In this document: positions 12,495 through 29,936 of the stretch, piece by piece | Numbering within the stretch: position 1 is the stretch's first letter | Layout of the letters: the number at the start of each line of letters is the position of its first letter | Origin: an uncultured bacterium | GTDB lineage: Bacteria > Pseudomonadota > Gammaproteobacteria > Steroidobacterales > Steroidobacteraceae | DNA length: 31,955 nt | NCBI GenBank assembly: GCA_963978075.1 | Contig: CAXBRZ010000001.1 | Location: 1-31,955 of the forward strand | Direction of reading: 5' to 3' | Position numbers and translations under genes: made by a program | The notes under the pieces: generated by a model | The model's database searches: none | Told to the model about the DNA's origin: nothing | The model's input: the letters and a program-made list of their open reading frames with translations, nothing else

Positions 12495-14057
12495 TTACGC
12501 AGGGCGCATTCCCGAGCGCGGCAACTTCACCGGGAACTTCGCCCGGATGGCCGCATCGACTTCCTCGGGGATGTGCGACGGATAGTGCGTTGCGAGCAGG
12601 TCCTTCACCCGCTTCTCCGCGCGGTCAAGGACACTGGTCGATCCCTGCTCGATCCACTCATTCGGGCTGCGGCGATCGCCGACAGCCGGGTAGAGATACT
12701 CGGTCTGCATCAGTTGCAGGGTCTGGTCCGCCCCGAGGTAGTGTCCGGGGCCATTCAGGCAGACGTCCTTGATCACCTCGAAGGACAACTTCTCTTCGTT
12801 GACCTCGATACCCTTGATCGTGCGCTGGGCCATGCCGATCGTGTCGTTGTCGATCACTAGGCTCTCGAGCGAGTAGCCCAGCAGGCTGGCGTGCATGCCG
12901 GCCGATTCATAGATCATGTTGGCGCCGGCATTGCCCACGAGTGCGTGGTTGAGGGCCTTTTCCGCACCCGCCTGCTCGTCGGCGATCTTCGAATCGGTCA
13001 TGCCCGAGGCGGTGCCGCCGGTCAGGTCGTAGAAATGGGCCATCTGCCCGGCCGCCGCAGACAGTAGGGCCTGCTCGGGGCTACCACCGGACATCGCGCC
13101 CGTGCGCAGGTCCGAGACGAAGCACCACGTTCCAAAGATTGCGGGATGTCCTGGCTTGATGGCGTTGACATAGACGAGACCTGCAAGACATTCGGCGACT
13201 TCCTGGGCCAGCGCTCCTGCGATGGCCGCCGGCGCTGTTGCACCAGCCTGGCCGGCCGACAGGAGCAGCACGGGCATGCCACCGCGCACCGCGACCTCAA
13301 GACACTTGCAGGCATCGGTCGCAAATTTCATGGGCGGAACAACGAAGCAGTTCGACTGGCTGACAAAGGGACGCTCTCTCCACTTGTCCTCGCCACCGGC
13401 GATCATGTGCAGCATCTCGAGCGACTTCTCGAGATGCTCGGGCAGCACCCAACTGGACCCGACGTGCTTCGTCGTACTCGAGACGGACGCATAACAGGTA
13501 TTGAAATCCATCTCGTACGGATCCGGCAGGTCACGCGGGACCACGGCGCGCTGAAAGAAGTGGATGTGCTCCATCGCGTCGACGATGCGGCCGATGTTGA
13601 AAAGATCCTGGATGCGCGACTCGCGATAGGTGCCGTCGGCATTGACCATGTTCACCGCCGCGCCGGCGGTACCGAAGTAAACCTTCTTGCCCCATGGCTC
13701 GAGATCGAATTTCGGATCCTGTGCGTACAAGGGGAACTTGCGGCCCGCCTTGGCCAGCGTGTCCTCGACCAGCGCGCGCGGAAACAGCAGCCTGCCACGG
13801 TCGCTGAGCGTGCAACCGGCACGCGTGAGAATCTCGACGCCTGACTCGGGCGCATCGGCAAGACCGACTTCCTCGAGCAGACGCAGCGCGGTCTGGTGGA
13901 TCTGCTGGATGTCCGAGTCGCTGAGCGGCCGGTACTGACCGCCCGGCATGCCTGGGACCACCGGACGCAAATGATCCGGCAGGGGACCCGAACGCTGCGC
14001 ACGGCGGGCATCACGACCGGAAGGACGACGGGCTCGAACGGTGGACTCTTCAGACAC
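12495..14057 (-). CDS. MttB-family (trimethylamine methyltransferase superfamily) non-pyrrolysine methyltransferase 1
   Basis: Start reassigned to GTG at 14057 (AGGAGA RBS). Arg-rich N-terminus, IHQTALRLLEEVG, YFGTAG, GATAPAAIAGALAQ, VSDLRTGAMSGGSPE and GMTDSKIADEQAG. No in-frame TAG. Confidence 0.92.
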   Translation of the reverse strand: MSEESTVRARRPSGRDARRAQRSGPLPDHLRPVVPGMPGGQYRPLSDSDIQQIHQTALRLLEEVGLADAPESGVEILTRAGCTLSDRGRLLFPRALVEDTLAKAGRKFPLYAQDPKFDLEPWGKKVYFGTAGAAVNMVNADGTYRESRIQDLFNIGRIVDAMEHIHFFQRAVVPRDLPDPYEMDFNTCYASVSSTTKHVGSSWVLPEHLEKSLEMLHMIAGGEDKWRERPFVSQSNCFVVPPMKFATDACKCLEVAVRGGMPVLLLSAGQAGATAPAAIAGALAQEVAECLAGLVYVNAIKPGHPAIFGTWCFVSDLRTGAMSGGSPEQALLSAAAGQMAHFYDLTGGTASGMTDSKIADEQAGAEKALNHALVGNAGANMIYESAGMHASLLGYSLESLVIDNDTIGMAQRTIKGIEVNEEKLSFEVIKDVCLNGPGHYLGADQTLQLMQTEYLYPAVGDRRSPNEWIEQGSTSVLDRAEKRVKDLLATHYPSHIPEEVDAAIRAKFPVKLPRSGMRPA

Positions 14058-14155
14058 GGAACGTCTCCTGAATACGGACCAGACCGGGGCCGATGATCCC
14101 CATGCCACGGCAGCGCGGAAGCGTCGCACGTTGCGCCTTTCGCCGCAGTACTGTT

Positions 14156-14243: not shown

Positions 14244-15977
14244 ATGATTCGCTCCGCCTGCACGATCGCCCTTGTGACCACCTTGTCGGCTCCGCCACTG
14301 TACGCGGACTACCATCCGATCCAGCCGCAGGCACAAGCCGCTACTGTCCGGCTCGACGGCCGCACGCTCTCGGTCGATGCCGTCGTGCAGGTGGCCCGAT
14401 TCGGAGCGAAGGTGGAATTCACACAGGAGGCGCTCGACAGCATGGCCGGCAACTACGGGCTCCTGTTGGAGGCCACCGCCGAGGGCATTCCTGTTTACTG
14501 GTTCAACCGCGGCTCCGGCGACCAGCGCGAGACGGTCATCTTCGAGGGTGACGCGATGAGTCCGACCAACCGGCCGGTGGTCGAGAAGGTTCAGGAAGCC
14601 AGCTTCCGTCAGGCCGCCCTCTACGGGGTGGGACCCGAAGTCGATCAGGAGGAGATCGTCCGGGCCATGATGGTGGTACGGGCCAACTCGATGGTCCACA
14701 ACGCGCCGAGCCCCGCTCTGGCGCAGATGATCGTCGACCTTTTGAACCACCGGATTACGCCGGTCGTGCGATCGCGCGGCTCTGTCGGTGAGGGCGACCT
14801 TGGCCCATTGGGCAACGTCGGAGGCACCATGATCGGGGTCGGGGACGCCTACCTGAACGGTGAGCGATTGCCGGCCCGGGAAGCCCTGCGCCGCAGCGGC
14901 CTCGTCCCGCTCAAACCCTTCGCGGCAGACGACAATGCCCTCACGAGCAGCAACGCCTATGCGGTAGGTCAGGCCGCCCTTTTGGTGTACGACGCGCGCG
15001 AACTGCTCGAGTGGACCGACCTGTCCTACGCGATGGCCCTGAATGGCATGAACAGCAGCATCAGTCCACTGAGCCTTCCCGTGCAGCGCGACCGTCCCGA
15101 CCGCTGGCTGAACTGGCATGCTCAGAAAATCCTCACTATTCTGGGAGATAGCTATCTTTTCGACGCAGATAATGACCGAATCATTCAAGACCCTGAAAGT
15201 CTGCGGGCATCGTCGATCCGCCAGGCCAGCGCCTGGATGGAATGGCAGTTGCTGTCGGACAGCGTCACCTTCCAGATCAACAGCTCGGACCACAACCCCG
15301 TCGTGGCGCGCGGCTTAGGTCCCGACGACGCCAAGGAACTGGCCTCACCGCAACTGATGCACTTCTATGTCAAGGGCGGGCCGCTGAGTCGCGGCGAGCA
15401 TGGCTATATCCTCTCCAACGCCAACTGGGACCCCTACCCCTTCGCGAACCGTCTGGAAAGCTTCACCATTGCGATGGACAACATGGCGGTGGCCGTGGCG
15501 GAACGGATCGAGCGCTTCCGAAACCCGTTTTTCACCAAAGTCTCGGTCGAGGAGGCGCTGCCGGACTACGCCCGCGAGGACGACGGCTACGCGCCGATCG
15601 ACCTTTTGCAGCAGATTTCCGCGGACGCGGTACCGACGCCAGCGCGTGGCAGCGCCCTCGTCGGCACGGTCGAGGACTTGCAGGCGCAGACCCGCCAGAA
15701 GGTGGCGCGCGCACGCGATGCGGTATCGACCGCCCGCGAGCTGCTGGCATTTGATCTGCTGGAGGGCGCCCTCTGGATGGACGTGCGCGCGTCGCAAGTG
15801 CCTGGCCGCCATTTCGGCGCCGCGCCGACCCGCCTGTGGCAGTCCATCCGACGCCTGGCGCCCCGGCGGCAACTTTCCGTGCCGGAGCAACGCACCGAAC
15901 CTGACCAATCCAAGATTGCCCGCTTCCTGACGGAACACTCGGCGCAGGAATTTGCGTCGTACCTTCTGCCGAATTGA
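14244..15977 (+). CDS. Exported aromatic amino acid lyase-family protein lacking the MIO tripeptide (ergothionase-like)
   Basis: HAL-fold motifs LDGRTLS..V, VY..N.G, RAMMVVRANS, NHRITPVVRSRGSVGEGDL, QDPESLR and NSSDHNP. Sec-like signal peptide MIRSACTIALVTTLSAPPLYA. Confidence 0.85.
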   Translation: MIRSACTIALVTTLSAPPLYADYHPIQPQAQAATVRLDGRTLSVDAVVQVARFGAKVEFTQEALDSMAGNYGLLLEATAEGIPVYWFNRGSGDQRETVIFEGDAMSPTNRPVVEKVQEASFRQAALYGVGPEVDQEEIVRAMMVVRANSMVHNAPSPALAQMIVDLLNHRITPVVRSRGSVGEGDLGPLGNVGGTMIGVGDAYLNGERLPAREALRRSGLVPLKPFAADDNALTSSNAYAVGQAALLVYDARELLEWTDLSYAMALNGMNSSISPLSLPVQRDRPDRWLNWHAQKILTILGDSYLFDADNDRIIQDPESLRASSIRQASAWMEWQLLSDSVTFQINSSDHNPVVARGLGPDDAKELASPQLMHFYVKGGPLSRGEHGYILSNANWDPYPFANRLESFTIAMDNMAVAVAERIERFRNPFFTKVSVEEALPDYAREDDGYAPIDLLQQISADAVPTPARGSALVGTVEDLQAQTRQKVARARDAVSTARELLAFDLLEGALWMDVRASQVPGRHFGAAPTRLWQSIRRLAPRRQLSVPEQRTEPDQSKIARFLTEHSAQEFASYLLPN

Positions 15978-15993
15978 TTGCAATCGTTTGCAA
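15978..15993. promoter_or_regulatory. LacI/GalR-type operator-like palindrome upstream of the TonB-dependent receptor
   Basis: TTGCAATCGTTTGCAA fits the TGnAAnCGnTTnCA consensus. It lies about 270 nt upstream of the receptor start. Confidence 0.4.
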
Positions 15994-16261
15994 TCACGGG
16001 GCACCCGTTGGGGATCGCGCAACTAATTTGACCGCTCGGTAAATCCCGTTAGCGGCCGTGTTGTTGTTAAAGCGCAACTTCACAAATGTCATGAAAATGC
16101 TGTAGGTTACGCTCAGGATCTTCAGAACTGACTGACGGTCTTTTGTTTTGCTGCAACGAACTGTGTCTTGGAAGCGCACGCTTTTAGGACCACGCGGATC
16201 GGGACGAGGCTCACCGACTCTGCGAATGCCTGAGCCACCTTTTGTGAATGAGGGGAATCGC

Positions 16262-19003
16262 TTGAAACTTAATACCAAGCTGACCTACGCGGTCATGGCG
16301 GCGCTCAGCGCCGGCACGGGCTCCGTAGCGGTCGCCGCGACGGCTGAAGAGAGCAAGGCCACCGGCCTTGAGATCGCGGACATCGTCGTCACCGCACAGC
16401 GGCGTTCGGAAAGCATCCAGAACGTGCCTATCACCATCCAGGCTCTGAGCAGCGAAACGCTCAGCCAGTTGTCGGTGACAACGTTTGACGACATGGTGAA
16501 GTACCTGCCGAACGTGCAGTTGTCGAGCAACGGCCCGGCGCAGGGCAACATCTTTATGCGCGGCCTCGCCCTCGGTTCGGCAGGCACGCAGTCCTCCGGC
16601 ACGATCGGCCTGTACCCGAACGTCGCTGTCTACCTTGACGAACAGTCGGGTCAGTTGCCGTCGCGTAACCTCGACGTCTACGCCGCCGACCTTGAGCGCG
16701 TCGAAGTTCTCGAGGGTCCGCAGGGTACCCTGTTCGGCGGTGGCGCCCAGGCCGGTGTGGTCCGCTACATCACCAACAAGCCGAAGCTGAACAAGTTCGA
16801 AGGCGCCTTCGACGCCAGCTACGGCACGACCGCCCACGGCGACCCGAACTCGGGCTTCACCGCGACCCTGAACCTGCCGATCATCAACGACAAGTTCGCC
16901 GTTCGAGCCGTGATGTACAACGAGACCCGCGGTGGCTACATCGACAACGTGGCTTCGACGTTCACCCGTCGCAACACCGACCTCGGCATCTACTACGCGA
17001 AGTACGCCGGTGGCGTGCCGCCGGATAGCGTGGTCATCAACAACAACTCCATCGTCAAGGACAACATCAACTCTGTGAAATACCAGGGTACGCGTGTGTC
17101 CGGCCTCTGGCAGTTCAACGATGACTGGAACCTGCTCGTGTCGCAGTCCTATCAGGACGTGCACGCGGACGGCGTGTTCTATCAGATGCCGAAGGGCTCG
17201 GAAAACCAGGCTCTTTCGCCCTACGAGGTCACCCTGTTCAACAACTCGTTCAACACGGACAAGTTCTCGAACACGGCCTGGACCCTGAACGGCAAGCTCG
17301 GTGCCCTGCACGCGGTCTACACCGGCGGCTACCTCGTCCGCAAGGTCGACCAGGTGCAGGACTACACGAACTACGCGCGTGGCGTGTACGCCGACTACTA
17401 CCAGTGCTATGGCCCGGGTTCGGGCGTGTACTCGGCGGCCGCCGGTTATGCGATCTACGGCACGGGTGACACGAACCTCACCTCGAAGTGCTTCTCGCCG
17501 AGCGCCACCTGGCGCGAAATCGAGAAGAACACGCACTTGACCCACGAGTTCCGCCTGTCTTCGCCAGATGACTGGCGCTTGCGGTTTGTGGCCGGTGCGT
17601 TCTACGAGAACCTGCGCATCTATGACCAGACCGACTGGTACTATAAGTCGATCCCCAACTGCCCAGCCGATGTTTCGACTTATAACGGTTATACGGGAAC
17701 GGGCGGTGGAACGGGTTGCTTGGGCAACATCGCTCCGGTTCCGGGCTCGACGGTCAACAACCCGAACACCCGCCCTGACAACGACGGCTTCTTCGAAGAC
17801 GTGCAGCGCGGCTACAAGCAGAAGGCGTACTTCGCGTCGGTCGACTACGATCTGATCCCGAAGACCCTGACCGCGACGTTCGGTGCGCGCCACTACGACT
17901 ACGAGGTCGACCAGAAGGGTACGGTCAACACGTCGTTCGGCTGCTTCGAGGCGCCGGCCCCGTGCTACCCCTACAGCACCAACATGGACGCGGAAAAGCT
18001 GAACAGCTCGTACAAGGGCACGAAATACCGCGCCAACCTGACCTGGCACATCACGCCGGATGCCATGGTCTACGCGACCTGGTCGCAGGGGTACCGTCCG
18101 GGCGGCTTCAACCGTAAGGGAGGTTTAAAACTCAAGGACGGGACCGACCTCTACACAGCGTCCAATGCCCCTAGACCGAGTCTGATCGGCACGCCTATCC
18201 CACAGTTGTCGCTACCGCTGACTTTTGCGCCTGACACGCTTGAGAACAAAGAAATCGGCTTCAAGACCGAATTCATGAACCACCGCGTGCAGGTCAACGG
18301 CTCCATCTACCAGGAAGACTGGAAGAACGTTCAGACGGGCATTTTCAACCCAGCCTCCGGACTCGGAAACCTAACTTTCGCACTCAATGGCGCGGACTAC
18401 CGTGTTAAGGGTGCCGAGTTGCAGGTAACCGCTCGCGTGACCCAAGGCCTCACTGTGACCGGATCGATGTCGTACAACGACGCGACGCAAGTGAACTCGC
18501 CGTGTCTGGTTGATAACATCGCGGCCAGCAAGAACTACGGCAAGTGCATCACCTATAAGGGCGGCGGCATCCTCGGAGACGCGACACCCATCACCAACGC
18601 TCTCGGAAGTCCGGGCACACCGACCGCATACTCACCGAAGGTCCAGTTCAGCGCCCACGCGCGCTATGACTGGTCGGTAGGTGAGTACGCCGCGTTCTGG
18701 CAGGTGGGTGTCGTTCATGTCGGTGACATGTACAACAACACCTACACCAGTCCAGACGTTAACGGTGACAACCCGGCCAATCTCCAGGCTGTCGCCACCA
18801 CGCTGCTGCGCTTCCACATGGCGGCGTACACGACGTACGACGCGGCGGTGGGCGTGGCCAAGGACAACTGGAACCTCCAGCTGTACGGCCAGAACCTGAC
18901 CGACGAGAATGCGTCGACCTTCACCTCGACCGCCCAGTTCATCAAAACGGAAGTACCGCTCCGTCCACGTGTGCTCGGCATTCGGGTTGGCATGAAGTTC
19001 TGA
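16262..19003 (+). CDS. TonB-dependent outer-membrane receptor
   Basis: Probable TTG start at 16262 after GAGGGG. Signal peptide, IVVTAQRRSE TonB-box region, plug motif DLERVEVLEGPQGTLFG, beta-barrel character and terminal Phe (GMKF). Confidence 0.93.
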   Translation: MKLNTKLTYAVMAALSAGTGSVAVAATAEESKATGLEIADIVVTAQRRSESIQNVPITIQALSSETLSQLSVTTFDDMVKYLPNVQLSSNGPAQGNIFMRGLALGSAGTQSSGTIGLYPNVAVYLDEQSGQLPSRNLDVYAADLERVEVLEGPQGTLFGGGAQAGVVRYITNKPKLNKFEGAFDASYGTTAHGDPNSGFTATLNLPIINDKFAVRAVMYNETRGGYIDNVASTFTRRNTDLGIYYAKYAGGVPPDSVVINNNSIVKDNINSVKYQGTRVSGLWQFNDDWNLLVSQSYQDVHADGVFYQMPKGSENQALSPYEVTLFNNSFNTDKFSNTAWTLNGKLGALHAVYTGGYLVRKVDQVQDYTNYARGVYADYYQCYGPGSGVYSAAAGYAIYGTGDTNLTSKCFSPSATWREIEKNTHLTHEFRLSSPDDWRLRFVAGAFYENLRIYDQTDWYYKSIPNCPADVSTYNGYTGTGGGTGCLGNIAPVPGSTVNNPNTRPDNDGFFEDVQRGYKQKAYFASVDYDLIPKTLTATFGARHYDYEVDQKGTVNTSFGCFEAPAPCYPYSTNMDAEKLNSSYKGTKYRANLTWHITPDAMVYATWSQGYRPGGFNRKGGLKLKDGTDLYTASNAPRPSLIGTPIPQLSLPLTFAPDTLENKEIGFKTEFMNHRVQVNGSIYQEDWKNVQTGIFNPASGLGNLTFALNGADYRVKGAELQVTARVTQGLTVTGSMSYNDATQVNSPCLVDNIAASKNYGKCITYKGGGILGDATPITNALGSPGTPTAYSPKVQFSAHARYDWSVGEYAAFWQVGVVHVGDMYNNTYTSPDVNGDNPANLQAVATTLLRFHMAAYTTYDAAVGVAKDNWNLQLYGQNLTDENASTFTSTAQFIKTEVPLRPRVLGIRVGMKF

Positions 19004-19022
19004 TCCTTCGGGGTCAGTAAAG

Positions 19023-19050
19023 CTGCAGCCGGCCTATGGCCGGCTTGCAG
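19023..19050 (+). other. Stem-loop immediately after the receptor stop
   Basis: CTGCA-GCCGGCC-TAT-GGCCGGC-T-TGCAG, a 12-bp stem with one bulge. Confidence 0.55.
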
Positions 19051-19059
19051 TAGAATCTG

Positions 19060-19088
19060 AGGCGGGCAGCAGTGCCCGCCTTTTTTTT
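19060..19088 (+). terminator. Rho-independent terminator
   Basis: GGCGGGCA-GCAG-TGCCCGCC followed by T8 (19081-19088). Confidence 0.85.
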
Positions 19089-19096
19089 GGTGCCGC

Positions 19097-21097
19097 ATGA
19101 CTGACACGACCGCCGCCGACGCCCCCTCCCCTGTGGAGCTGGAGATCCAGCGCATCCGCGGGCTCATGGAAAAAGGGCAGTTCGCCGAAGCCCTGCCTGC
19201 GGCAGAATCCCTCGCGGCCACCGTTCCCCAGAACCGCGACGTGCTGTACCTCGTTGCCGTCTGCCAACGCTATCTGCACCGCATTGCAGACGCGCTCACG
19301 ACCCTTGGGGAACTTGAAAAGTCCCACCCGCGCTTCAGCCTCCTGTACCAGGAACGGGGTCACTGTTACGTCGCGCAGCGCGACGCACCCAACGCCATCC
19401 ACGCGTACCAGCAGGCCGTGAACCGCAATCCCGCGCTCGTCTCCAGCTGGACAAAACTGGTCACGCTCTACCGCATGACCGGCCAGCAGGACAACGCACA
19501 GACGGCCGCGGCGCACATCGAGGTCACCTCGAAACTCGCCCCCGAAGTACTCACCGCCACCGGTCTCTTCGCAGATGGCGACCGGACGGCCGCAGAGCGG
19601 ATCATCCGCCCCTATCTCCTGCGCAAACCCGATGATGTCGAGGCGATGCGCCTGCTGGCCCGCATCGCCCTCGAACTCGATGTGCTGGATGACGCGGACC
19701 TGCTGCTGGCCAGCGTGGTTGAACTCGCCCCCGACTACCGCGCTGCGCGCTATGACTATGCACGCACCCTGCTGAAGCGTCACAAGCATGCGGCAGGCGT
19801 CGAGCAACTCGAAATCCTCCTGAAGGCGGAACCGGACAACCGGACTTACCGAACTTCCTACGCCACCGCCTGGGTCGGCATGGGCGACCATGAAAAAGCG
19901 CTGACGCTGTATCGGGATTTGCTGGTCGACGCACCGCGTGCGCCCGACATCCTGCTCTCCATCGCCCATACCCTGAAAACGCTCGGCCGGCAGCCGGAAG
20001 CGATCGACGCGTACCGAGAGGCTGCAGCCTCTCGACCTCATTTCGGTGATGCGTACTGGAGTCTTGCCAATCTCAAGACCTACCGTTTCACGCCCGACGA
20101 AATTGCCGCCATGCAGGCGAGCGAGGCGTCAGAGGAGATCCAGACGGATGACCGCCTGCACATGTGCTTCGCGCTCGGCAAGGGCTTCGAGGATCTCGGG
20201 GACTACGCCCGTTCCTTCGAATACTACGAGCGCGGCAATGCACTGAAGAAAAGCGACAGTCCGTACCGGGCTGAATTCGTCGAACAGAACACCACCGAAC
20301 AAAAAAATGTCTGCAGCGAGTCCTTCTTTGCAGCTCGGCGCGGCTGGGGCTGCCAGGACGCCGATCCGATCTTCATCGTAGGGCTGCCGCGGGCAGGTTC
20401 CACGTTGCTTGAACAGATTCTCGCCTCCCACTCGCAGGTGGAGGGGACGATGGAGCTGGCGGACATCGCCACCGCCGTGGTGGAACTCGAGGGGCACAAC
20501 AAGGACAACGTCCATCGCGTGTACCCCAAGGTACTCGAAACCCTCGAGGATGCCGATTTTCGCCGTCTGGGCGAGAAATACCTCGCGGACACTCGGGTCT
20601 ACCGCAGCGGCAAGGCGTTCTTCATCGACAAGATGCCGAACAACTTCCGGCACATCGGACTCATCCACCTGATGCTGCCCAATGCCAAGATCATCGACGC
20701 GCGCCGCGAACCGATGGCCTGCTGCTTCTCCAACTTCAAGCAGCTGTTTGCCTCGGGACAGGACTTCACCTATTCGATTGAGGACATCGCGCGCTATTAC
20801 CGGACGTACATCGAACTCATGGACCACTGGGAGAGCGTGCTCCCCGGGCGCGTCCTGCGGGTACAGCATGAGGACGTGGTCGACAACCTAGAAACCAACG
20901 TCCGGCGCATCCTCGATTTCTGCGGCCTGCCCTTTGAACCTGGCTGCGTCGAGTTCCACAAGACCAAGCGCAGCGTCCGGACGGCCAGCTCCGAACAGGT
21001 CCGCCAGCCGATTTTCCGCGATGGCCTCGATCAGTGGCGCAACTTCGAGCCCTGGCTTTCACCCCTCAAGTCGCACCTCGGAGAACTCGTTCCGTGA
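19097..21097 (+). CDS. Tetratricopeptide-repeat sulfotransferase-family protein
   Basis: About 400 aa of TPR-like helical repeats, then the PAPS 5'-PSB loop IFIVGLPRAGSTLLEQIL, DKMPNNF, the 3'-PB region IIDARREPMACCFS and TASSEQVRQPI. Confidence 0.9.
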   Translation: MTDTTAADAPSPVELEIQRIRGLMEKGQFAEALPAAESLAATVPQNRDVLYLVAVCQRYLHRIADALTTLGELEKSHPRFSLLYQERGHCYVAQRDAPNAIHAYQQAVNRNPALVSSWTKLVTLYRMTGQQDNAQTAAAHIEVTSKLAPEVLTATGLFADGDRTAAERIIRPYLLRKPDDVEAMRLLARIALELDVLDDADLLLASVVELAPDYRAARYDYARTLLKRHKHAAGVEQLEILLKAEPDNRTYRTSYATAWVGMGDHEKALTLYRDLLVDAPRAPDILLSIAHTLKTLGRQPEAIDAYREAAASRPHFGDAYWSLANLKTYRFTPDEIAAMQASEASEEIQTDDRLHMCFALGKGFEDLGDYARSFEYYERGNALKKSDSPYRAEFVEQNTTEQKNVCSESFFAARRGWGCQDADPIFIVGLPRAGSTLLEQILASHSQVEGTMELADIATAVVELEGHNKDNVHRVYPKVLETLEDADFRRLGEKYLADTRVYRSGKAFFIDKMPNNFRHIGLIHLMLPNAKIIDARREPMACCFSNFKQLFASGQDFTYSIEDIARYYRTYIELMDHWESVLPGRVLRVQHEDVVDNLETNVRRILDFCGLPFEPGCVEFHKTKRSVRTASSEQVRQPIFRDGLDQWRNFEPWLSPLKSHLGELVP

Positions 21098-22620
21098 GCG
21101 AGCGTCGGCCCGGACCGCGCCGACGCGACGAGGCCCGCGCCCGTCCATCGGCCCAGTTCGCGCCGTTGCCGGCGCTTCGTCCGGCAGGGCCACCGCTTGA
21201 GCTTCTGTCAGGAGAGCAGGTCGAGCGCATCCTCACGACCGCTTTTCGCATCCTTGAGGAACTGGGTCTTGAGATCCGAAGCCCCAAGGCACGCCAGCAC
21301 TTCCGGGCGGCAGGAGCGCTCGTCGACGAGGACACGGGTCTTGTGCGCATCGGCCGCGACATCGTGGAGGCGCAATTAGGTCACGCGCCCGCCGAATTCG
21401 TGCTGCATGCCCGCAATCCTGAGCGTCACCTTCACGTGGGTGGCAATGCGGTCAACTTCGGCCCGGTGCATGGCGCGCCCAATATCCGTGACGGGCGCGA
21501 CGGTCGCCGCTACGGCAACCTCGAAGCCTTTCGCACCATCCTGAAGCTGACGCATCGGCTCGGCGTGACACAGTGGCAGGGCGGCATCGTGGTCGAGCCG
21601 ACCGACCTGCCGGTCGCATTGCGCCATTTGGCGGCGTATCAGGCACATATCGAATGCTCGGACATCGTCTGGGCCGCGCGCGGGGTTGGCGGTACACAGG
21701 CAGAGGACGCGCTCGCCCTCTCGGCCATCGAGCACGGCTGTCGAGTCGAGGACCTCGCCTCACGCCCTACCCTGCTGACCGTCACCAACGTCAATTCACC
21801 GCGGCGCGTGGACGAGGAAATCCTCGACAACATCATGATCATGGCCGCCCATGGCCAATGCGTGGTCGTCACTCCGTTCACCCTGATGGGCGCCATGGCG
21901 CCCGTGACGCTGGCAGGCGCCCTGGCGCAGCAGACGGCAGAGGCGCTGGGCATCGTCGTGCTTTGCCAGCTTGTCCGGCCTGGCAGCCCCTGCGTACTCG
22001 GCGGGTTTACCTCGAACGTCGACCTCAAGTCCGGATCCCCTGCGTTCGGCACACCGGAGTATGTCCAAGGGGTCATCGCGAGCGCCCAGATTGGCCGTCG
22101 GCTTCGACTTCCCGTGCGTACGAGCGCGGTCAACGCCGCCCCCTGCGTGGACGCCCAATCGACCTACGAGACCGCCTTTGCCCTGCAGGCGGCGATCCTG
22201 TCGCACAGCCACCTCGTGAGCCATGCCGCCGGCTGGCTCGAGGGTGGTCTCTCGGCCAGTTACGAGAAGATCATCGTCGATGCGGAACTCATCCGTCACT
22301 GGGCAGGCATCCTGAACCCCATCGCCTGCACGGATGACGATCTGGGCTTTGACACCATTCGCGAGGTGCCGCCCGGCGGGCATCACTTCGGTACCGCGCA
22401 CACCTTGGCGCGCTACCAGACGGCTTTCTATCGGCCGCTCCTGTCGGACTGGTCGAGCTTCGAGGCATGGACCGAAGCGGGCAGTCAGGATGCCACCGCA
22501 CGTGCGACCCGCCTTTGGCCGAAACTCCTCGAGGACTACGTGGCGCCTCCCCTTGATCCTGCCGTGCGCGAAGCCATGCTGGACTACATCGCCCGCCGCA
22601 CGCTGGCCCTTTCCCCGTGA
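21094..22620 (+). CDS. MttB-family non-pyrrolysine methyltransferase 2
   Basis: GTG at 21094 overlaps the upstream TGA. Motifs LHARNPER, NVNSPRR, PFTLMGAMAPVTLAGALAQ, FTSNVDLKSGSPAFGTPE and HAAGWLEGGL. No in-frame TAG. Confidence 0.92.
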   Translation: MSERRPGPRRRDEARARPSAQFAPLPALRPAGPPLELLSGEQVERILTTAFRILEELGLEIRSPKARQHFRAAGALVDEDTGLVRIGRDIVEAQLGHAPAEFVLHARNPERHLHVGGNAVNFGPVHGAPNIRDGRDGRRYGNLEAFRTILKLTHRLGVTQWQGGIVVEPTDLPVALRHLAAYQAHIECSDIVWAARGVGGTQAEDALALSAIEHGCRVEDLASRPTLLTVTNVNSPRRVDEEILDNIMIMAAHGQCVVVTPFTLMGAMAPVTLAGALAQQTAEALGIVVLCQLVRPGSPCVLGGFTSNVDLKSGSPAFGTPEYVQGVIASAQIGRRLRLPVRTSAVNAAPCVDAQSTYETAFALQAAILSHSHLVSHAAGWLEGGLSASYEKIIVDAELIRHWAGILNPIACTDDDLGFDTIREVPPGGHHFGTAHTLARYQTAFYRPLLSDWSSFEAWTEAGSQDATARATRLWPKLLEDYVAPPLDPAVREAMLDYIARRTLALSP

Positions 22621-23432
22621 CCGGCTGGCTCGCCAACGCCCGCATGTACGCGGTCACCCCTGCGGTGGAACACGCGTGGCAGCAGGTGATCGCAAACGTG
22701 GCCCGCGAGGCGGAGGTGGAACTTCGATATGTCCCCTATCCCGCTCCCCAGCCCTTGGAGGACCTCTGGAACCGTCCGGATTTGGGCTGTGTGCTCATGT
22801 GCGGGTATCCGATCGCCCTGCGCCTTGCGCCCGTGGTGCCGATCGTGGCACCTGTTCCTTCGATGGAGTGGGCCGAGGGCCGGGCGGTCTACCGCTCGGA
22901 CCTCATCGTCCGTGCCGACGCGCCGTTCCGGACGCTCGAGGACACCTTCGGCCATCGTGCAGCCTGGACCGTCCGCCACTCGCACTCAGGATTCAATGCC
23001 TTCCGGCACCACCTGCTGAAATACCGCAGCGCACTGCGCACCCGGCTGTATCGGGAAATGGTGCCGGATATGGTCACCGCACGCGCCATTCTGGATGGCG
23101 TACGCGAGGGGCGGTTCGACGTCGGGCCACTGGATGCCTACTGGCATTGGCTGATTGCCCGGCACGCCCCCGAACTGACCTCAGGCATACGGGTACTTGA
23201 ATCGACCGCCGTGGCTCCGATGCCCGCCTTCGTCGCATCCGCCGGCGCGCCTGAGGACGCCGTTCTACGCCTCAAGTCAGCCTTTGCCGCCGCCGATCAG
23301 CAGCCCTGGTTCGGCCGGTACCAGGCGGATCTGGGTCTGAATGGTTTTGCGCCGGTCAGCCAGGCGGATTTCGCCGTCACGCTTGAGCGTGATGCGGCCG
23401 CCCACGCCGCGGACTATTCCACGCCGGCCTGA
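22617..23432 (+). CDS. PhnD/SsuA-type periplasmic-binding-fold protein without a signal peptide
   Basis: GTGA overlap with mttB2. Motifs DLWNRPDLGCVLMCGYP, YRSDLIVRAD, HSHSGFNA and DVGPLDAY. No N-terminal hydrophobic stretch. Confidence 0.75.
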   Translation: MTGWLANARMYAVTPAVEHAWQQVIANVAREAEVELRYVPYPAPQPLEDLWNRPDLGCVLMCGYPIALRLAPVVPIVAPVPSMEWAEGRAVYRSDLIVRADAPFRTLEDTFGHRAAWTVRHSHSGFNAFRHHLLKYRSALRTRLYREMVPDMVTARAILDGVREGRFDVGPLDAYWHWLIARHAPELTSGIRVLESTAVAPMPAFVASAGAPEDAVLRLKSAFAAADQQPWFGRYQADLGLNGFAPVSQADFAVTLERDAAAHAADYSTPA

Positions 23433-23435
23433 CAG

Positions 23436-24380
23436 TCAGCCTGGCGGAACACGCCCGGTGGGATGCACGGCGACGTCATGGCCGCGCAACAGATAACGGC
23501 GCGCCAAGGCGAAATAACTGCGGTAGTACAACCCGCCATTCAGGCGCAGCAGCTCGTCGCGCCGCTGCCGGTATCGCCTCTGATAGGCATACCACGGAAT
23601 GAGCGGTTCATCGTGATGCAGGACGTGCAGGTTGTTGTAGAGAAAGAGGGGCCCGAAGAACCAACTGCGCTCGACAATCGCAATCCGCTCATGCACGGCA
23701 GGGAATGCGCGGTGTTCGGCATAGGAGCGTACTGAACCGAGGCTCTTGCTGGGCCAGACGACTGCAAGCAGATAGATCCAGAACGGGATACCGCAGACAA
23801 CGGTCACCCAGTAGACGACCGGCAGGCACAGAAGCAGGTGAAAGGCCCATGCCCCACCCACGCCGGGCTCGCCGCGCCGGATCGCGCGCCATTCACCACG
23901 CCAGTACATGAGGATATGCATGGGCGCGCCGACCGTCACACGCCCCAAGAGGGTCTGGTCGAGGCGCCACAAAAGCCTCATGAACGGCGACATGCCCTCC
24001 CACTGTTCCGGCGTCAGGTAGTAGGACTCAGGATCGTCCAGCGGATCGGTCAGCCGTTCGTTGTTGTGATGCTTGAGATGCAGACGCTTGTAGCGCGCGT
24101 AGGGAATCCACAGCGAGATTGGAATCCTGCCAATCAGGTCGTTGATGGTCGCCCAGCGTGTCGGATGGCCATGCAGCACCTCATGCTGCAGGGAACCGTG
24201 CCATGCCGTCAGGATGGCCAGCAGCGGCAAAACCACGACCGCCGGCCAGACGCCATACACCGTTGTGAGACCGAGCCAACCGCCATAAATAAACGCAGCC
24301 AGCAACACCGTCGGCCATTCAATGACCGGAGCCCCCGCATAGCGGGCCCGCTCAGGCAGCAGAAAGGTGTTTCCCGTCAT
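23436..24380 (-). CDS. Membrane di-iron fatty acid desaturase-family protein
   Basis: His boxes HEVLH, HLKHH and HVLHH, plus EH in YAEHR. Several transmembrane stretches. Confidence 0.85.
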   Translation of the reverse strand: MTGNTFLLPERARYAGAPVIEWPTVLLAAFIYGGWLGLTTVYGVWPAVVVLPLLAILTAWHGSLQHEVLHGHPTRWATINDLIGRIPISLWIPYARYKRLHLKHHNNERLTDPLDDPESYYLTPEQWEGMSPFMRLLWRLDQTLLGRVTVGAPMHILMYWRGEWRAIRRGEPGVGGAWAFHLLLCLPVVYWVTVVCGIPFWIYLLAVVWPSKSLGSVRSYAEHRAFPAVHERIAIVERSWFFGPLFLYNNLHVLHHDEPLIPWYAYQRRYRQRRDELLRLNGGLYYRSYFALARRYLLRGHDVAVHPTGRVPPG

Positions 24381-24454: not shown

Positions 24455-25180
24455 TCATGTCCTCACACGAGGCTCAGGCCCCGCAAGCAGTCCGAGGGCG
24501 TCGTGCAGCAGCATCGCCATCAGTCCGGTCAGAAGCCCCCCCTGCAGCACGAAGGCGCTGTTGTCGGACAGGAGCCCTGCAATGATGACCTCGCCGAGGC
24601 CCTTGGCTGCGACCGTAGAGCCGAGTGTCGCCGTGCCCACGCTGATCACGACACATTGCCGCAACCCCTCGACGAGCCATGGCCGTGCCAGCGGCAATTC
24701 GATGCGCCACAATCGCTCGGCAGGACCCATGCCGACACCGTCGGCGGCCTCGAGCACGGCTGAGGGCAATTGGGTAAGGCCCGTCAGGGCGTTCTCGAAG
24801 ACCGGCAGCAGGCCGTAGGCCGTGAGCGCGATCAGCGCCGGGCGCATTCCGAATCCCACCAGAGGGACGGCGACCGCAAGCACGGCAACCGGCGGAAAAG
24901 TCTGACCTATCCCGACCAGCGAGCGAGACATCGGCAGGAAGGCGCGTCCCGCGCCCCGTGTCACCAGGACCGCCAGGACGATGGCAATCAGGGCACTGAG
25001 GGAGGTAGCAAAGAGCACGAGCCCAAGGTGCGCCAAGGTCAGCGTGAGGAGGTCCCCCTGGTCGTAGATGGCCGGAGCGCCAGCCGCAGCGAACGGCGCA
25101 AATACGAATGCGAAGGCCTCCGGCCGCAGCAGGAACGCCGCGAGCACGGCCAGAACGAGGCACCGAATCATCACCCTCAT
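24455..25180 (-). CDS. yehW: Osmoprotectant-type ABC permease (YehW-like)
   Basis: Start at ATG 25180 (ATGA overlap). GQTFPPVAVLAVAVP and the EAA motif EAADGVGMG. Confidence 0.85.
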   Translation of the reverse strand: MRVMIRCLVLAVLAAFLLRPEAFAFVFAPFAAAGAPAIYDQGDLLTLTLAHLGLVLFATSLSALIAIVLAVLVTRGAGRAFLPMSRSLVGIGQTFPPVAVLAVAVPLVGFGMRPALIALTAYGLLPVFENALTGLTQLPSAVLEAADGVGMGPAERLWRIELPLARPWLVEGLRQCVVISVGTATLGSTVAAKGLGEVIIAGLLSDNSAFVLQGGLLTGLMAMLLHDALGLLAGPEPRVRT

Positions 25181-26115
25181 CGCGCGGCGGTTCCGTGGCG
25201 CAGAATCATGCCAAGCGTCACATGGCCCATCCGGTGCCCCTGTGCATCGCATACATTCGCGGCCTCCGCACCTGCCCAGATCAGGGCTGCGAGCGCGTCC
25301 TTCAGGCTCATGGTGACCGGCAAATCCGGTCCCGTGACAGCACCCGGCGACAGGATCGTATCCGCGGTCTCAAGAGACAAGAGCCGCAGGGCCCGGTCGG
25401 CGGTGCCCGTCAGCGCGGCAACCTGGTCTGTGGCAGGTTCGGTCAGCAGCCGTGCCGGAACGTCGTACTGCAGCAAGCGTCCGCCGTCCATGACAGCAAT
25501 CCGGTCCGCCAGCAGGAACGCCTCATCCATGTCATGCGTGACGATCAGCACGGTCGTTCCCAATTGCCGCTGGATTGCCCGAAGATCCGACTGCGCCTTG
25601 GCGCGGATGACGGGATCCAGCGCTCCGAAAGGCTCGTCCATCAGCAACAGGGCGGGGTCTGCGGCCAGTGCGCGTGCAACACCGACCCGCTGCTGCTGGC
25701 CTCCGGACAGTTCGGCCGGAAGGCGCAGCGCATGGGTTGCCGGATCAAGGCCGAACAATCGGAGCAGTTCATCGGTGCGGGCGTGGATACGCGCCTTGTC
25801 CCAACCCAGCAGGCGCGGCACGGCGGCAATGTTCTCGGCCACCGTATGGTGCGGGAAGAGGCCATTGCCCTGGATGACGTAGCCGATACGCCGACGCAAC
25901 ACATGCGCGGGTTCCGCGGTGGTCAGGCGTCCGTCGATGCGCACAGCGCCACTCGTGGGCTCGACCAGACGGTTGATCATGCGCAGCAGCGTCGACTTGC
26001 CGGAGCCGGAGGCTCCGACAATGGCCGTCACCGAACCGCTCGGCACCGCAAGACTCACGCCGTCCACCACGGTGGACTGTCCATAGCGTTTGGTCAGCCC
26101 CTCAATCTCGATCAT
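25177..26115 (-). CDS. yehX: Osmoprotectant-type ABC ATPase (YehX-like)
   Basis: Walker A GASGSGKS, signature LSGGQQQRV, Walker B LLLMDEPFGALD and H-loop VTHD. Confidence 0.93.
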   Translation of the reverse strand: MIEIEGLTKRYGQSTVVDGVSLAVPSGSVTAIVGASGSGKSTLLRMINRLVEPTSGAVRIDGRLTTAEPAHVLRRRIGYVIQGNGLFPHHTVAENIAAVPRLLGWDKARIHARTDELLRLFGLDPATHALRLPAELSGGQQQRVGVARALAADPALLLMDEPFGALDPVIRAKAQSDLRAIQRQLGTTVLIVTHDMDEAFLLADRIAVMDGGRLLQYDVPARLLTEPATDQVAALTGTADRALRLLSLETADTILSPGAVTGPDLPVTMSLKDALAALIWAGAEAANVCDAQGHRMGHVTLGMILRHGTAAR

Positions 26116-27266
26116 CCCGCCCTCCGCTGCTGCAACTGCTCGACCACGGCATCCAGCATCACACCGGCCGAGAGCGCGAGCGCCACTGTGGGCAAGGCCC
26201 CCAGCAGCACAAGATCAATGGCCGTCTGGCCGATGCCCTGGAAGATAAACGCCCCAAGGCCCCCGCCGCCAACGAGGGCTGCCACCGCAGCAAGACCGAT
26301 GTTTTGGACGAGCACCACGCGTACACCCGTGACGATCGTCGGCAGCGCCAGGGGCCAGCGTATATCGCTCAGCACCTGGCGTTCGGTGAGCCCCATGCCC
26401 CGCGCCGCCTCAATCACGTCCTCAGAAATGCCCTCGAGGCCGAGCACTGTATTGGCCACCACCGGCAGCAGGGCATACAGGCACAGCGCTAGAAAGGCCG
26501 GCGCATAACCGATACCACCGATGCCCCAGTCAGCGAGCGTGGGCCACGCCGCCGCCAGTGCGGCCAGCGGTGTCATCAGCATGCCGTACAGTGCAATCGA
26601 AGGCACTGTCTGCACGCCGCTCAGCACCGCAAGCATGGGCCGTCGCAGCCAGCGACGTCCGTGACAGGCGAGCCCCGCGGGTACGCCGATGGCCACCGCA
26701 AAGAGCACCGAGCCGAACGACAAGGCGAGGTGACGGTTCAGTTCGTGACCGAAACGCCCTGCATTGGTCGCGTACTCGCGCATGACGGACACCTGCTCGA
26801 AATGCCCGCTGCCAAGCGCAAGGCCCAAGGCACACAGCGCGGTCGCCAACAGCAGCAGACGCGCGAAGGCGCGCAACCGCAGGCGGGCAACGGCGTCGGT
26901 CAGGAGCAGCAGTAACGTTGCCGTCAAACACCAGAAGCCCGGGCCGGGCGCGATCCGCAAGACGGCTGCCCCGTCGGCTCCGCGCGCACTGGCCGCCGCA
27001 CCGAGCCCGTACAGGAGCACTGCAAGGGCACCGATGCTGGCGGTCAGGCGCCGCACGGGCTGCAGGCTTAGGACCGCCAGCAGCCAGAGGAGCAGAAGGG
27101 CGACACCCCACGGCAACCCACCCGTGATCAGCACGTCAAAGGCCGACTCGCCGACGCCAGGCACCACCCGGTTCGCTTTGACTATCAGGAAGGGCAGCCC
27201 ACTGAACGCCCACGCTCCCGCCACCCCGAAGACGAGGCCCGGCAAGTCGGGCCGTCGGGCACTCAT
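26112..27266 (-). CDS. yehY: Osmoprotectant-type ABC permease (YehY-like)
   Basis: Long N-terminal TM extension with ANRVVPG, QTVPSIALYG, EAARGMGLT and GGGGLG. Confidence 0.87.
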   Translation of the reverse strand: MSARRPDLPGLVFGVAGAWAFSGLPFLIVKANRVVPGVGESAFDVLITGGLPWGVALLLLWLLAVLSLQPVRRLTASIGALAVLLYGLGAAASARGADGAAVLRIAPGPGFWCLTATLLLLLTDAVARLRLRAFARLLLLATALCALGLALGSGHFEQVSVMREYATNAGRFGHELNRHLALSFGSVLFAVAIGVPAGLACHGRRWLRRPMLAVLSGVQTVPSIALYGMLMTPLAALAAAWPTLADWGIGGIGYAPAFLALCLYALLPVVANTVLGLEGISEDVIEAARGMGLTERQVLSDIRWPLALPTIVTGVRVVLVQNIGLAAVAALVGGGGLGAFIFQGIGQTAIDLVLLGALPTVALALSAGVMLDAVVEQLQQRRAG

Positions 27267-28171
27267 GGGAGAAACCCCGCCACGCGCAGGTAATCCCGGG
27301 CGACAACGGCCGGCGCCTCGCCGCCGATCTGCACCCGTTCGTTCAGCCGCTGCAGACGGTCACGATCAAGGCTGCGCATCAGCGGACCCACAACCTCTGC
27401 AATCGCCGGATACCGCTCCAGCACCACGCCCCGCACCGTCGGCACCGGCGCATAGACCGGCTGGTCATGAAGGTCATCCTCCAGCACGCGCAACCGGGCG
27501 CTGACGATTCCGCCATCCGTGCTGTAGACCATCGCCACATTGACGTTGTTGGTGCGCGCCGCCGCCGCTGCGATGGTGGCGGCCGTCTCACCGCCGGCGA
27601 GGACAATCTTCTGTTCGGGTTTGAGGTGGAATCCGTAGGTCGCCTCGAGCGAACGCAGCGTACCGGCGTTGGCAAATTCGGCCGAGCAGGCGAGCGTCAC
27701 GTGTCCACCCGCACGAACCCAGCGTCCAAAGTCGCTCATGCTGTACAGGACAGCCTGCCGCGCGACGTCCTCGCGCACGGCTAGCGCCCAGGTATTGCTC
27801 GCCGGCGCCGGTGTCAGCCAGACCACCCGATGCGCCGCCAAGTCAAGGCGGGCGCCTTCCGCAAAACCTGCCGCCGCATCCTTCCAGACGGGGTCAGACG
27901 GCCGGTGGTGGAAAAAACCGGCGTTCCCCGTGTACTCGACGTAAAGATCGATTTCTCCGGCCAGCAACGCCCTGCGCACGACCGGGGTCGCTCCGAGCGT
28001 CATGCGATCGACCGTCGGAATACCGTGCGCCTCCAGCAAGAGACGGATCATCTGGCCGATCATGGCCGACTCCGTCGACAGCTTGGACGACACCACCACC
28101 GGTGGCAGCGCCATAGCCACGCCGGCGACAGACAGCGACCACAGCAACAGGAGACACAGCAGGCGGCGCAA
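27263..28171 (-). CDS. yehZ: OsmF/YehZ-type quaternary-amine ABC substrate-binding protein
   Basis: Probable TTG start at 28171 (GGAG 6 nt upstream) gives the signal peptide MRRLLCLLLLWSLSVAGVAMA. Motifs LGATPVVR, GEIDLYVEYTGNAGFF, NTWALAVR and QPVYAPVP. Confidence 0.85.
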   Translation of the reverse strand: MRRLLCLLLLWSLSVAGVAMALPPVVVSSKLSTESAMIGQMIRLLLEAHGIPTVDRMTLGATPVVRRALLAGEIDLYVEYTGNAGFFHHRPSDPVWKDAAAGFAEGARLDLAAHRVVWLTPAPASNTWALAVREDVARQAVLYSMSDFGRWVRAGGHVTLACSAEFANAGTLRSLEATYGFHLKPEQKIVLAGGETAATIAAAAARTNNVNVAMVYSTDGGIVSARLRVLEDDLHDQPVYAPVPTVRGVVLERYPAIAEVVGPLMRSLDRDRLQRLNERVQIGGEAPAVVARDYLRVAGFLP

Positions 28172-28348
28172 TCGGATCTCCGCAGTCGCACCAGTGGGGC
28201 GAGGCTTGACCCTGCCACCTTGGCGATTGCAGTGCACAGCGTCAAGCACCGAAGCGCTTGTCATCGCCCGCGCCGCGTGGTCACATGGGCGCCTGTCGGG
28301 CACCGCGCATCACGGCCGGGTGCCCCAGATGCAAGTTCCGCCAGATCT

Positions 28349-29653
28349 GTGAAGCCACCGTTGAAGCGCACGCCCAAGAACCGCTCCGATCACCCTGACA
28401 GCGGCCGTTACAGCCTTTTTCGGCTCCTGCGCGAAGGTCTGTTCGGTCATGAAGGCTGGGGACCTGCCTGGCACAAGGCCTCGCCTCGCGCTCACTACCG
28501 CGTCGTCATTGTCGGCGGCGGCGGCCAGGGGTTGGCCACCGCCCATGCCCTCTGCACCGAGCATGGCATCAGCGACGTAGCGGTACTGGAAAAAGGCCCG
28601 ATCGGGCTTGGCAACGTCGGACGCAACACCACCATCGTCCGCAGCAACTACTTCCATCCGGACAACATCCGCTTCTACGAATACTCGCTGAAGCGCTGGG
28701 AACAACTGGAGCGCACGCTCAACTTCAACGCGATGGTGAGCCAGCGCGGCACGCTCAACCTGTTCCATACCGAAGCGCAGCGCGACCTTTTCACCCGCCG
28801 CGCCAACGCGATGCGCCTGCAGGGCGTCGATGCCGAGGCTCTGGACCGCAAGGAGGTCAAGGAACTGGTGCCTCTCGTCGACCTCGACCATGGCCGTTTC
28901 CCGGTGCTGGGCGGCTTCCTGCAGCCACGCGGAGGCACCGTACGTCACGACGCCGTTGCCTGGCGGTACGCACGTGCCGCATCACGGGCAGGCGCCGATA
29001 TCGTCGAGCACTGCGAAGTGCGCCGCATCGTTGCCGAGCGTGGCCGCGTGACCGGCGTCGAAACCAGCCGCGGCTTCATCGGCGCCGACATTGTCTGTCT
29101 CGCGGTTGCCGGCCACTCCTCCACCCTGGCCGGCACGGTCGGCCTCAGACTGCCGGTCGAGAGCCACGTGCTGCAGGCCTTCGTGAGCGAATCGATCAAG
29201 CCGGTCCTCGACGTCGTCATCACCTATGGCGCCGGGCACTTCTACATCAGCCAGTCGGACAAGGGTGGTCTCGTCTTCGGAGGCCCGATCGACGGCTACA
29301 ACACCTACGGACAGCGTGGCACGTTGCCGGTGGCCGAAGAGGTTGCCGCCGCTGGACTGACCATGCTCCCGGGACTTGGCCGCGTGCGGATCCTGCGCCA
29401 ATGGGGCGGCATCATGGACATGAGCATGGACGGATCGCCGATCATTTCCCGCACGCCGGTCGAAGGTCTTATTTTGAACGCTGGCTGGTGTTACGGCGGA
29501 TTCAAGGCCATTCCGGCCGGTGGCGCCGCGACGGCCCACCTCATCGCTACAGGCGAACCACACGACATCGCGCGGCATTTTGACCTTGAGCGGTTTGCGG
29601 ACGGCCGCACCATCGACGAGCGCGGCGCCGGGCCGTTCCCGTGGGCGCACTGA
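28349..29653 (+). CDS. soxB: Sarcosine oxidase-family beta subunit (paralog 2); start uncertain (GTG 28349 or TTG 28361)
   Basis: RYSLFRLL..GL N-terminal motif, IVGGGGQGLATA, GRNTTIVRSNY, RHDAVAW, WGGIMDMSMDGSPI and GWCYGGFKA. Confidence 0.9.
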   Translation: MKPPLKRTPKNRSDHPDSGRYSLFRLLREGLFGHEGWGPAWHKASPRAHYRVVIVGGGGQGLATAHALCTEHGISDVAVLEKGPIGLGNVGRNTTIVRSNYFHPDNIRFYEYSLKRWEQLERTLNFNAMVSQRGTLNLFHTEAQRDLFTRRANAMRLQGVDAEALDRKEVKELVPLVDLDHGRFPVLGGFLQPRGGTVRHDAVAWRYARAASRAGADIVEHCEVRRIVAERGRVTGVETSRGFIGADIVCLAVAGHSSTLAGTVGLRLPVESHVLQAFVSESIKPVLDVVITYGAGHFYISQSDKGGLVFGGPIDGYNTYGQRGTLPVAEEVAAAGLTMLPGLGRVRILRQWGGIMDMSMDGSPIISRTPVEGLILNAGWCYGGFKAIPAGGAATAHLIATGEPHDIARHFDLERFADGRTIDERGAGPFPWAH

Positions 29654-29654
29654 C

Positions 29655-29936
29655 ATGCTGCGCATTCCCTGCCCGCACTGCGGAGTACGTGACGAGACCG
29701 AATTCCGCTACCGCGGAGATGCCAGCGTGCTGCGCCCATCCCCCGAGGGCGGCGAGGTGGCTTTCGCGCGCTACGTCTACGAACGAACCAATCCCAAGGG
29801 CTGGCATGCCGAGTGGTGGATGCATGCTGCCGGCTGCCGAACGGTACTGCGCGTGATCCGGCATACCGTCACGCACGAAATCCATTCGGTAACACTGCCG
29901 CAGGAAACCGCCGAGATGCCGGCGGACGGTCGATGA
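29655..29936 (+). CDS. soxD: Sarcosine oxidase-family delta subunit
   Basis: MLRIPCPHCGVRDETEF, YVYERTNPKG..EWWMHAAGC (Cys3His zinc site) and RHTVTHEI. Confidence 0.93.
   Translation: MLRIPCPHCGVRDETEFRYRGDASVLRPSPEGGEVAFARYVYERTNPKGWHAEWWMHAAGCRTVLRVIRHTVTHEIHSVTLPQETAEMPADGR

Follow-up and report, generated by a model that had tools for sequence, protein, structure and literature searches.

Whether three genes of different families, chained by short overlaps behind a TonB-dependent receptor gene, form one functional module is the question raised by contig CAXBRZ010000001.1 of an uncultured Steroidobacteraceae bacterium (assembly GCA_963978075.1). The whole stretch of 31,955 nucleotides (nt) is referred to as the window and corresponds to contig C1 of a metagenome-assembled genome (MAG) with a completeness of 83%. 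The chain consists of a tetratricopeptide repeat (TPR) sulfotransferase gene (19097–21097, plus strand; Pfam TPR repeats and Sulfotransfer_3, 6.2e-51), the MttB-family methyltransferase gene MttB_B (21094–22620, plus strand; Pfam MTTB, 2.3e-175) and a gene for a leaderless PhnD/AioX-like binding-fold protein (22617–23432, plus strand; Pfam Phosphonate-bd, 2e-21). Each downstream GTG start shares 4 nt with the upstream TGA stop, and the two GTGA junctions reported by a first-pass annotation were found at 21094–21097 and 22617–22620, with the open reading frames (ORFs) at the coordinates given above. The receptor that the same annotation placed ahead of the chain was identified as the upstream ORF with plug and beta-barrel domains (16148–19003, plus strand; Pfam Plug, 7e-15, and TonB_dep_Rec_b-barrel, 1.6e-26). 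Its likely true start, judged from the N-terminal sequence, is an ATG near 16226, before a signal-peptide-like stretch, and a gap of 93 nt separates the receptor from the sulfotransferase.

According to the comparisons described below, the three genes probably combine two independent conserved pairs, whose lineage-specific joining produced a composite operon in some soil Steroidobacteraceae. In the first pair, a cytoplasmic TPR-sulfotransferase dependent on 3'-phosphoadenosine 5'-phosphosulfate (PAPS) would partner the TonB-dependent receptor of the outer membrane. The second would couple a non-pyrrolysine MttB with a cytoplasmic AioX/PhnD-like protein, tied to a di-iron membrane enzyme and an OpuA-type betaine importer.

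Conservation of the two pairs

The neighbourhoods of the chain were evaluated with a PhnD-like profile, which gave 346 loci in contigs from one genome per species, and the best 80 of the 346 loci were compared. These were mostly from Steroidobacteraceae with a few from alphaproteobacteria, and they overlapped with a same-genus set in which MttB_B orthologs with 71–85% identity were present in 14 genomes. The order of receptor, sulfotransferase, MttB and PhnD-like gene was kept in the same-genus genomes wherever the flank was available. The adjacency of sulfotransferase and MttB, for which no described coupling had been known to the earlier annotation, was not unique to this genome, and the neighbourhood comparison showed that it recurs in three Steroidobacteraceae clades with the 4-nt overlap kept. 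Among the MttB_B/PhnD-like loci, 62 were informative: the sulfotransferase was directly upstream of MttB in 17, near or inverted in 4, and absent from the upstream flank in 41. A receptor was found upstream in every sulfotransferase–MttB locus with enough flank (15/15). In the MttB_B tree, the sulfotransferase-adjacent state was distributed over three clades, for which at least two changes were required. In the sulfotransferase tree, the MttB-adjacent copies fell in separate lineages, and the genome's own paralog on contig C301 and the inverted copies were nested among them. Furthermore, the sulfotransferase remained behind the receptor in the inverted loci L062 and L074 and in the interrupted locus L090; these rearrangements are a clear natural experiment showing TPR-sulfotransferases to be partners of TonB receptors. 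Tandem duplicated TPR-sulfotransferases were observed between the receptor and MttB in L043, L046 and L094 (and L034), and L044 seems, from the sulfotransferase tree, to retain the other copy of a tandem pair.

The pairing with receptors was also evident within the genome, in which seven to eight TPR-sulfotransferase paralogs were found. A TonB receptor gene adjoined all seven paralogs with readable flanks (C1, C40 twice, C19, C89, C32 and C193), as in the window, where the sulfotransferase gene is directly beside the receptor gene. The paralog on C301 adjoined an FAD oxidoreductase gene, and its receptor-side flank was cut by the contig end. The genes beyond these cassettes differed, including MttB, a formylglutamate amidohydrolase with an aminotransferase, a thiamine pyrophosphate (TPP) enzyme, a SnoaL/cupin/SDR group and glycogen genes. 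The next genes after the C32 paralog were a carnitine-dehydrogenase-like gene with a BetI-type repressor. After the cassette, this locus (L125, 1–13883) contained a 3HCDH-thioesterase fusion (the carnitine-dehydrogenase-like gene), a BetI-type TetR gene, an MFS transporter gene and an FAD oxidase gene, and it continued with a DMGDH-like gene and another MttB. A phylum sample was taken with one sulfotransferase site per genus in 47 genera, among the 150 matches listed for the family. A receptor was located within 1.5 kb of the sulfotransferase in at least 16 of the 47 genera, a lower bound because the receptors were detected with five receptors of this genome as queries. MttB was located within 9 kb of the sulfotransferase in none of the 47 genera among the matches listed. 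Literature searches on TPR-sulfotransferases with TonB receptors returned nothing relevant, and the earlier statement that such neighbours lack a known function still holds after these searches.

The second pair had its own set of constant neighbours. In most of the related loci, a constant block was formed by MttB_B, the PhnD-like gene, the convergent desaturase-like gene and the OpuA-type importer. The MttB/PhnD-like junction was a 4-nt overlap in 27 of 73 loci and a gap of at most 40 nt in 38, giving 65/73 together. In the window, a membrane di-iron FA_desaturase-family gene (23436–24380, minus strand; Pfam FA_desaturase, 2.5e-28) is convergent on the PhnD-like gene with 3 nt between both stops, and among the 75 loci with room, 68 had a desaturase-like gene in this convergent orientation no more than 600 nt from the PhnD-like gene. 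The OpuA-type betaine ABC importer (24455–28303, minus strand; Pfam BPD_transp_1, ABC_tran and OpuAC) comprises a permease, an ATPase, a permease and an OpuAC binding protein. The alphaproteobacterial loci carried the PhnD-like gene without MttB_B, and the desaturase-like gene was present in some of them (L045 and L108). The constant partners of MttB_B were the cytoplasmic AioX-like protein and the di-iron membrane enzyme, not the sulfotransferase. In L045 (5279–8801), from a Beijerinckiaceae MAG, the PhnD-like gene followed enolase-superfamily (MR_MLE) and ornithine-cyclodeaminase-family genes, with the desaturase-like gene convergent, and this arrangement hints at a proline-betaine-type metabolism for the PhnD-like/desaturase pair. 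Literature searches on MttB with PhnD returned nothing relevant.

Proteins of the two pairs and their likely functions

The sulfotransferase contains about 12 TPR repeats (residues 12–412) followed by a PAPS-type sulfotransferase domain (about 420–650), and this arrangement was reproduced in an AF2 model with a pLDDT of 90. The N-terminus is without a signal peptide, and by its sequence the protein is assigned to the cytoplasm. The top Foldseek matches of the model were the TPR domains of OGT and SPINDLY, and the whole-protein search was dominated by TPR matches and was uninformative on the catalytic domain. OGT and SPINDLY likewise place a long TPR superhelix ahead of a transferase domain, and their TPR arm selects protein substrates, but their catalytic fold and chemistry are different, and the analogy is architectural only. 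Among PDB sequences, the catalytic domain matched the tyrosylprotein sulfotransferases (TPST) first and the CurM sulfotransferase second. The 5'-phosphosulfate-binding (PSB) loop GLPRAGST was aligned to GMPRSGTT of TPST, the catalytic base was the Glu of GTMEL aligned to the second Glu of CGEET, and the RRE...S segment of the 3'-phosphate-binding (3'-PB) region was also aligned. Hence, the protein has the PSB loop, catalytic base and 3'-PB region of TPST-like members of PF13469. It shares with TPST1/2 (PDB 5wrj, 3ap1 and 8w5z) the Sulfotransfer_3 domain, the PSB loop PRxGS/TT, the catalytic Glu and the 3'-PB region, but it differs in the fusion of about 12 TPR repeats, its cytoplasmic location and its TonB-receptor neighbour, and the similarity is weak (E 3e-6). 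RaxST of Xanthomonas is grouped with the protein-tyrosine sulfotransferases. An APS kinase is encoded in the genome, and thus the genome can make PAPS. These features suggest a PAPS-dependent, tyrosylprotein-sulfotransferase-like enzyme with an OGT-like TPR arm, whose substrate would be a protein or peptide. Possible candidates are the receptor, or some other exported protein, prior to export.

MttB_B matched PF06253 over its full length (profile positions 5–497 of 500). No internal stop was found in its frame, which is thus without an in-frame UAG (pyrrolysine) codon, and its score against the pyrrolysine-type equivalog TIGR02369 was 239.6 bits, below the cut-off of 525. An assignment as a pyrrolysine-dependent trimethylamine methyltransferase was rejected on these two observations, and MttB_B is presumed to be a non-pyrrolysine quaternary amine:corrinoid methyltransferase. 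The best PDB matches were the putative methyltransferase 4yyc and then the glycine betaine methyltransferase DhMtgB (2qne/9yce). The similarity was full-length in both cases (E 9e-84 for DhMtgB and 4e-99 for 4yyc), but the identity to MttB_B is too low for a transfer of substrate specificity. For glycine betaine as a candidate methyl donor, the context consists of the OpuAC importer, DMGDH, sox and folD genes of the window. The window as a whole is a methylated-amine island by its Pfam content, with sarcosine oxidase genes, two DMGDH-like genes, folD, a second MttB, an exported MIO-less lyase, the OpuA-type ABC importer and the convergent FA_desaturase-family gene.

About nine MttB paralogs were found in the genome. 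Genes with B12-binding, DUF1638 and Pterin_bind domains were clustered on contig C97, and a RamA-like gene (RACo_C_ter) was on C29, all unlinked to the locus. Thus, the corrinoid, pterin-binding methyltransferase and reactivation components of an MtgBCD-type system are all present in the genome. The published aerobic model for Ruegeria pomeroyi has MtgB donating the methyl to MtgC, which is shared, and MtgD carrying it on to tetrahydrofolate (PMC12478193). The missing local corrinoid gene is explained by corrinoid partners shared from elsewhere in the genome, as in the MtgBCD model, and this sharing is displayed by the present locus. MttB_B resembles the MtgBCD system (PMC12478193) as a non-pyrrolysine MttB-family enzyme of an aerobe with unlinked MtgC-, MtgD-, DUF1638- and RamA-like genes, and its gene is likewise surrounded by genes of dimethylglycine, sarcosine and folate C1 metabolism. 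It differs in its gammaproteobacterial host with about nine MttB paralogs and in its partners, a di-iron membrane enzyme and an AioX/PhnD-like protein that lacks a leader. To our knowledge, no role in MtgBCD has been described for AioX/PhnD-like or di-iron membrane partners.

The PhnD-like protein is a single copy in the genome and is 64–77% identical among gamma- and alphaproteobacterial homologs, in which many residues are invariant. Its N-terminus (VTGWLANARMYAV) showed no hydrophobic leader and no signal peptide. The AF2 model (pLDDT 84) was nearest to AioX/ArrX/PtxB/PhnD in Foldseek (TM about 0.77; AioX 2.4e-16), which places it in the class II binding-protein fold. Five of the seven AioX pocket residues were kept, namely Cys106, Tyr131, Ser161, Ser163 and Asp210, which correspond to the invariant C62, Y92, S122, S124 and D173. 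AioX His192 was replaced by Ala, and AioX Tyr88 was beyond the alignment. The simplest inference is a ligand that is an oxyanion-bearing small molecule. In contrast to the AioX/ArrX/PtxB/PhnD proteins, of which it shares the fold and the five matched pocket residues, the PhnD-like protein has neither an export signal nor a cognate PhnE-type permease or sensor kinase; the adjacent ABC system carries its own OpuAC, and the partners of the protein are MttB and the di-iron membrane enzyme.

By analogy with MtgBCD, MttB_B would most likely demethylate a quaternary amine resembling glycine betaine and hand the methyl to an unlinked MtgC-like corrinoid protein, from which it would move onward to tetrahydrofolate via an MtgD-like protein. 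The products of this demethylation would enter the pathways encoded by the dimethylglycine, sarcosine and folate genes found in this island. The receptor–sulfotransferase cassette, placed ahead of MttB with a stop/start overlap, would allow uptake and catabolism to be co-expressed, and the MttB substrate would not be a target of the sulfotransferase. Enzymes of the non-pyrrolysine MttB type are increasingly recognised as a major route of aerobic betaine demethylation, and Steroidobacteraceae hold many MttB paralogs with unassigned specificity. Moreover, both partnerships are uncharacterised and amenable to simple genetics and biochemistry.

Transcription signals and rival explanations

Two hairpins were located 3' of the receptor stop (19022–19092, plus strand) by the terminator scan and the sequence. 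The second hairpin was a canonical intrinsic terminator at 19059–19082, with a 10-bp stem and a T-run, between the receptor and the sulfotransferase, and its end is a few nt 5' of the sulfotransferase ATG. This terminator was kept in L042, L043, L044, L046, L050, L052 and L075, which represent the window's clade and its sister clade. No consensus promoter was found in a sigma-70 scan, and an Rfam search of the window gave no match. Given the terminator, the sulfotransferase, MttB and PhnD-like genes would be expressed by read-through or from an unrecognised promoter. A TAGAAT motif was observed between both hairpins. In more distant loci, GGTAGAAT or GGTAGACT was present about 12 nt before the sulfotransferase ATG, without a T-run, and this motif may represent either a regulatory leader or a conserved -10 element.

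Several observations weigh against a join of two independent pairs. The strong terminator parts the receptor from the sulfotransferase in the window, and the sulfotransferase therefore looks transcriptionally nearer to MttB than to the receptor. The ATGA/GTGA overlap of sulfotransferase and MttB was kept in 14 of the 17 loci, from three clades. The MttB start at the overlap is supported by these 14 loci, in which ATGA or GTGA occupies the corresponding site; 4-nt gene overlaps are common in compact genomes, and the present overlap is more than chance because it is conserved across loci. Owing to the recurrence of the adjacency with the kept overlap, the sulfotransferase, MttB and PhnD-like genes are likely to be co-expressed. 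The second cassette, on C32, is also in a quaternary-amine locus with MttB 9 kb away, and a link of the cassette to amine use is conceivable in view of that locus. Finally, the Tyr-rich segment of the receptor (DYTNYARGVYADYYQ motif) is shared by receptor paralogs that have no sulfotransferase beside them; hence, it neither supports nor refutes receptor sulfation.

A join that carries no functional tie, in which the cassette landed beside the MttB operon by rearrangement and the overlap is inherited compaction, is unlikely but deserves serious weight. The neighbour upstream of MttB_B varied widely across the family, according to longest-ORF calls that included many spurious high-GC ORFs without a Pfam family and were used for context variability only. 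Two changes on the MttB tree can be enough to account for the adjacent state, which is thus mostly inherited; cassettes were also beside glycogen, sugar and aromatic-type genes, and the phylum sample was without sulfotransferase–MttB proximity among the matches listed. However, the overlap persisted even where sulfotransferase identity fell to about 60%, different sulfotransferase lineages occupied the position beside MttB, and the cassette was the commonest single neighbour, adjacent or near in 21 of 62 loci. The C32 cassette in another betaine-type locus also argues against a neutral origin. A direct role of the TPR arm in recruiting MttB_B or the PhnD-like protein, such that the sulfotransferase modifies or scaffolds the demethylase, would agree with the protein binding of TPR domains and with the tendency of translational coupling toward matched partner amounts, but close sulfotransferase paralogs, here and elsewhere, lacked an MttB or PhnD-like neighbour and most MttB_B orthologs lacked a sulfotransferase, which makes this role extremely improbable.

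The first-pass annotation had proposed one module that acts on a sulfated quaternary amine, with choline-O-sulfate as a known example of the class, or that sulfates a demethylated product, with the TPR region as a scaffold for partners. As evaluated here, the sulfotransferase would act on a hydroxylated or demethylated small amine, or the module would handle a sulfated quaternary amine whose sulfate ester is bound by the PhnD-like protein. The adjacency and the likely co-expression that the annotation assumed were retained, but the sulfotransferase followed the receptor, not MttB. The PhnD-like/MttB pair was without a sulfotransferase in the upstream flank in 41 of the 62 loci, the PhnD-like proteins of alphaproteobacteria also occurred without MttB, and the MttB-adjacent sulfotransferases were not one orthologous line in the tree. 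The sulfotransferase family moreover adjoins receptors in unrelated contexts, its catalytic domain was nearest to the protein-tyrosine sulfotransferases, and long TPR arms are characteristically found on enzymes that modify proteins. For a BetC-type choline-O-sulfate utilisation, no sulfatase family was found among the window ORFs scanned with Pfam, and the PF00884 sulfatase matches were on other contigs (C208, C12 and C67). A single biochemical module for a sulfated quaternary amine was thus not supported. The translational chaining of the three genes, the AioX-type oxyanion pocket of the PhnD-like protein (Cys, Tyr, two Ser and Asp), the small-molecule/ACP sulfotransferase CurM as second-best PDB match and the capacity of the genome to make PAPS are consistent with the proposal. 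Nevertheless, a shared sulfated-amine chemistry of the three genes is unlikely, and the proposal in its full form is very improbable. A further possibility, to which a low probability is assigned, is that the TPR-sulfotransferase sulfates tyrosines of the adjoining TonB receptor, or of another exported protein, before export and thereby forms an anionic site at which cationic quaternary amines would be captured. If so, the coupling to MttB and to the carnitine/betaine locus would mark a sulfated-receptor route for betaine scavenging in soil bacteria.

Other features of the window

The second MttB paralog, MttB_A (12495–14129, minus strand; Pfam MTTB, 1.2e-113), adjoins folD and had 84–97% identity in genus relatives. 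The exported MIO-less lyase gene (14244–15977) lies between MttB_A and the receptor. In the relatives L036, L038, L040 and L050, it was located elsewhere, beside a DMGDH-like gene by the OpuAC gene, and its position in the window is a lineage-specific rearrangement. The stretch from the lyase stop to the receptor gene contains a direct repeat, TTGCAATC(G)TTTGCAATC, at 15975–15998, which is a possible operator. An AbiEii-family nucleotidyltransferase gene (10639–11307) was observed between an ADH-like gene and folD, with a copy of 65% identity in the closest relative, L028. The plus-strand DAO/SoxB-like gene (27830–29653; Pfam DAO, 1.7e-63) opens a second sox operon that reaches the window end. 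The minus-strand ORFs 28310–28948 and 28982–29665 were rejected as synteny markers; they matched no family and are shadows of the DAO/SoxB-like gene. The window start falls within the C-terminal part of SoxA. A single open frame at 29813–31954 carries the N-terminal domains of SoxA (Fer2_4 and Pyr_redox_2) followed by an outer-membrane efflux (OEP) domain, and this frame may be a chimera or a misassembly.

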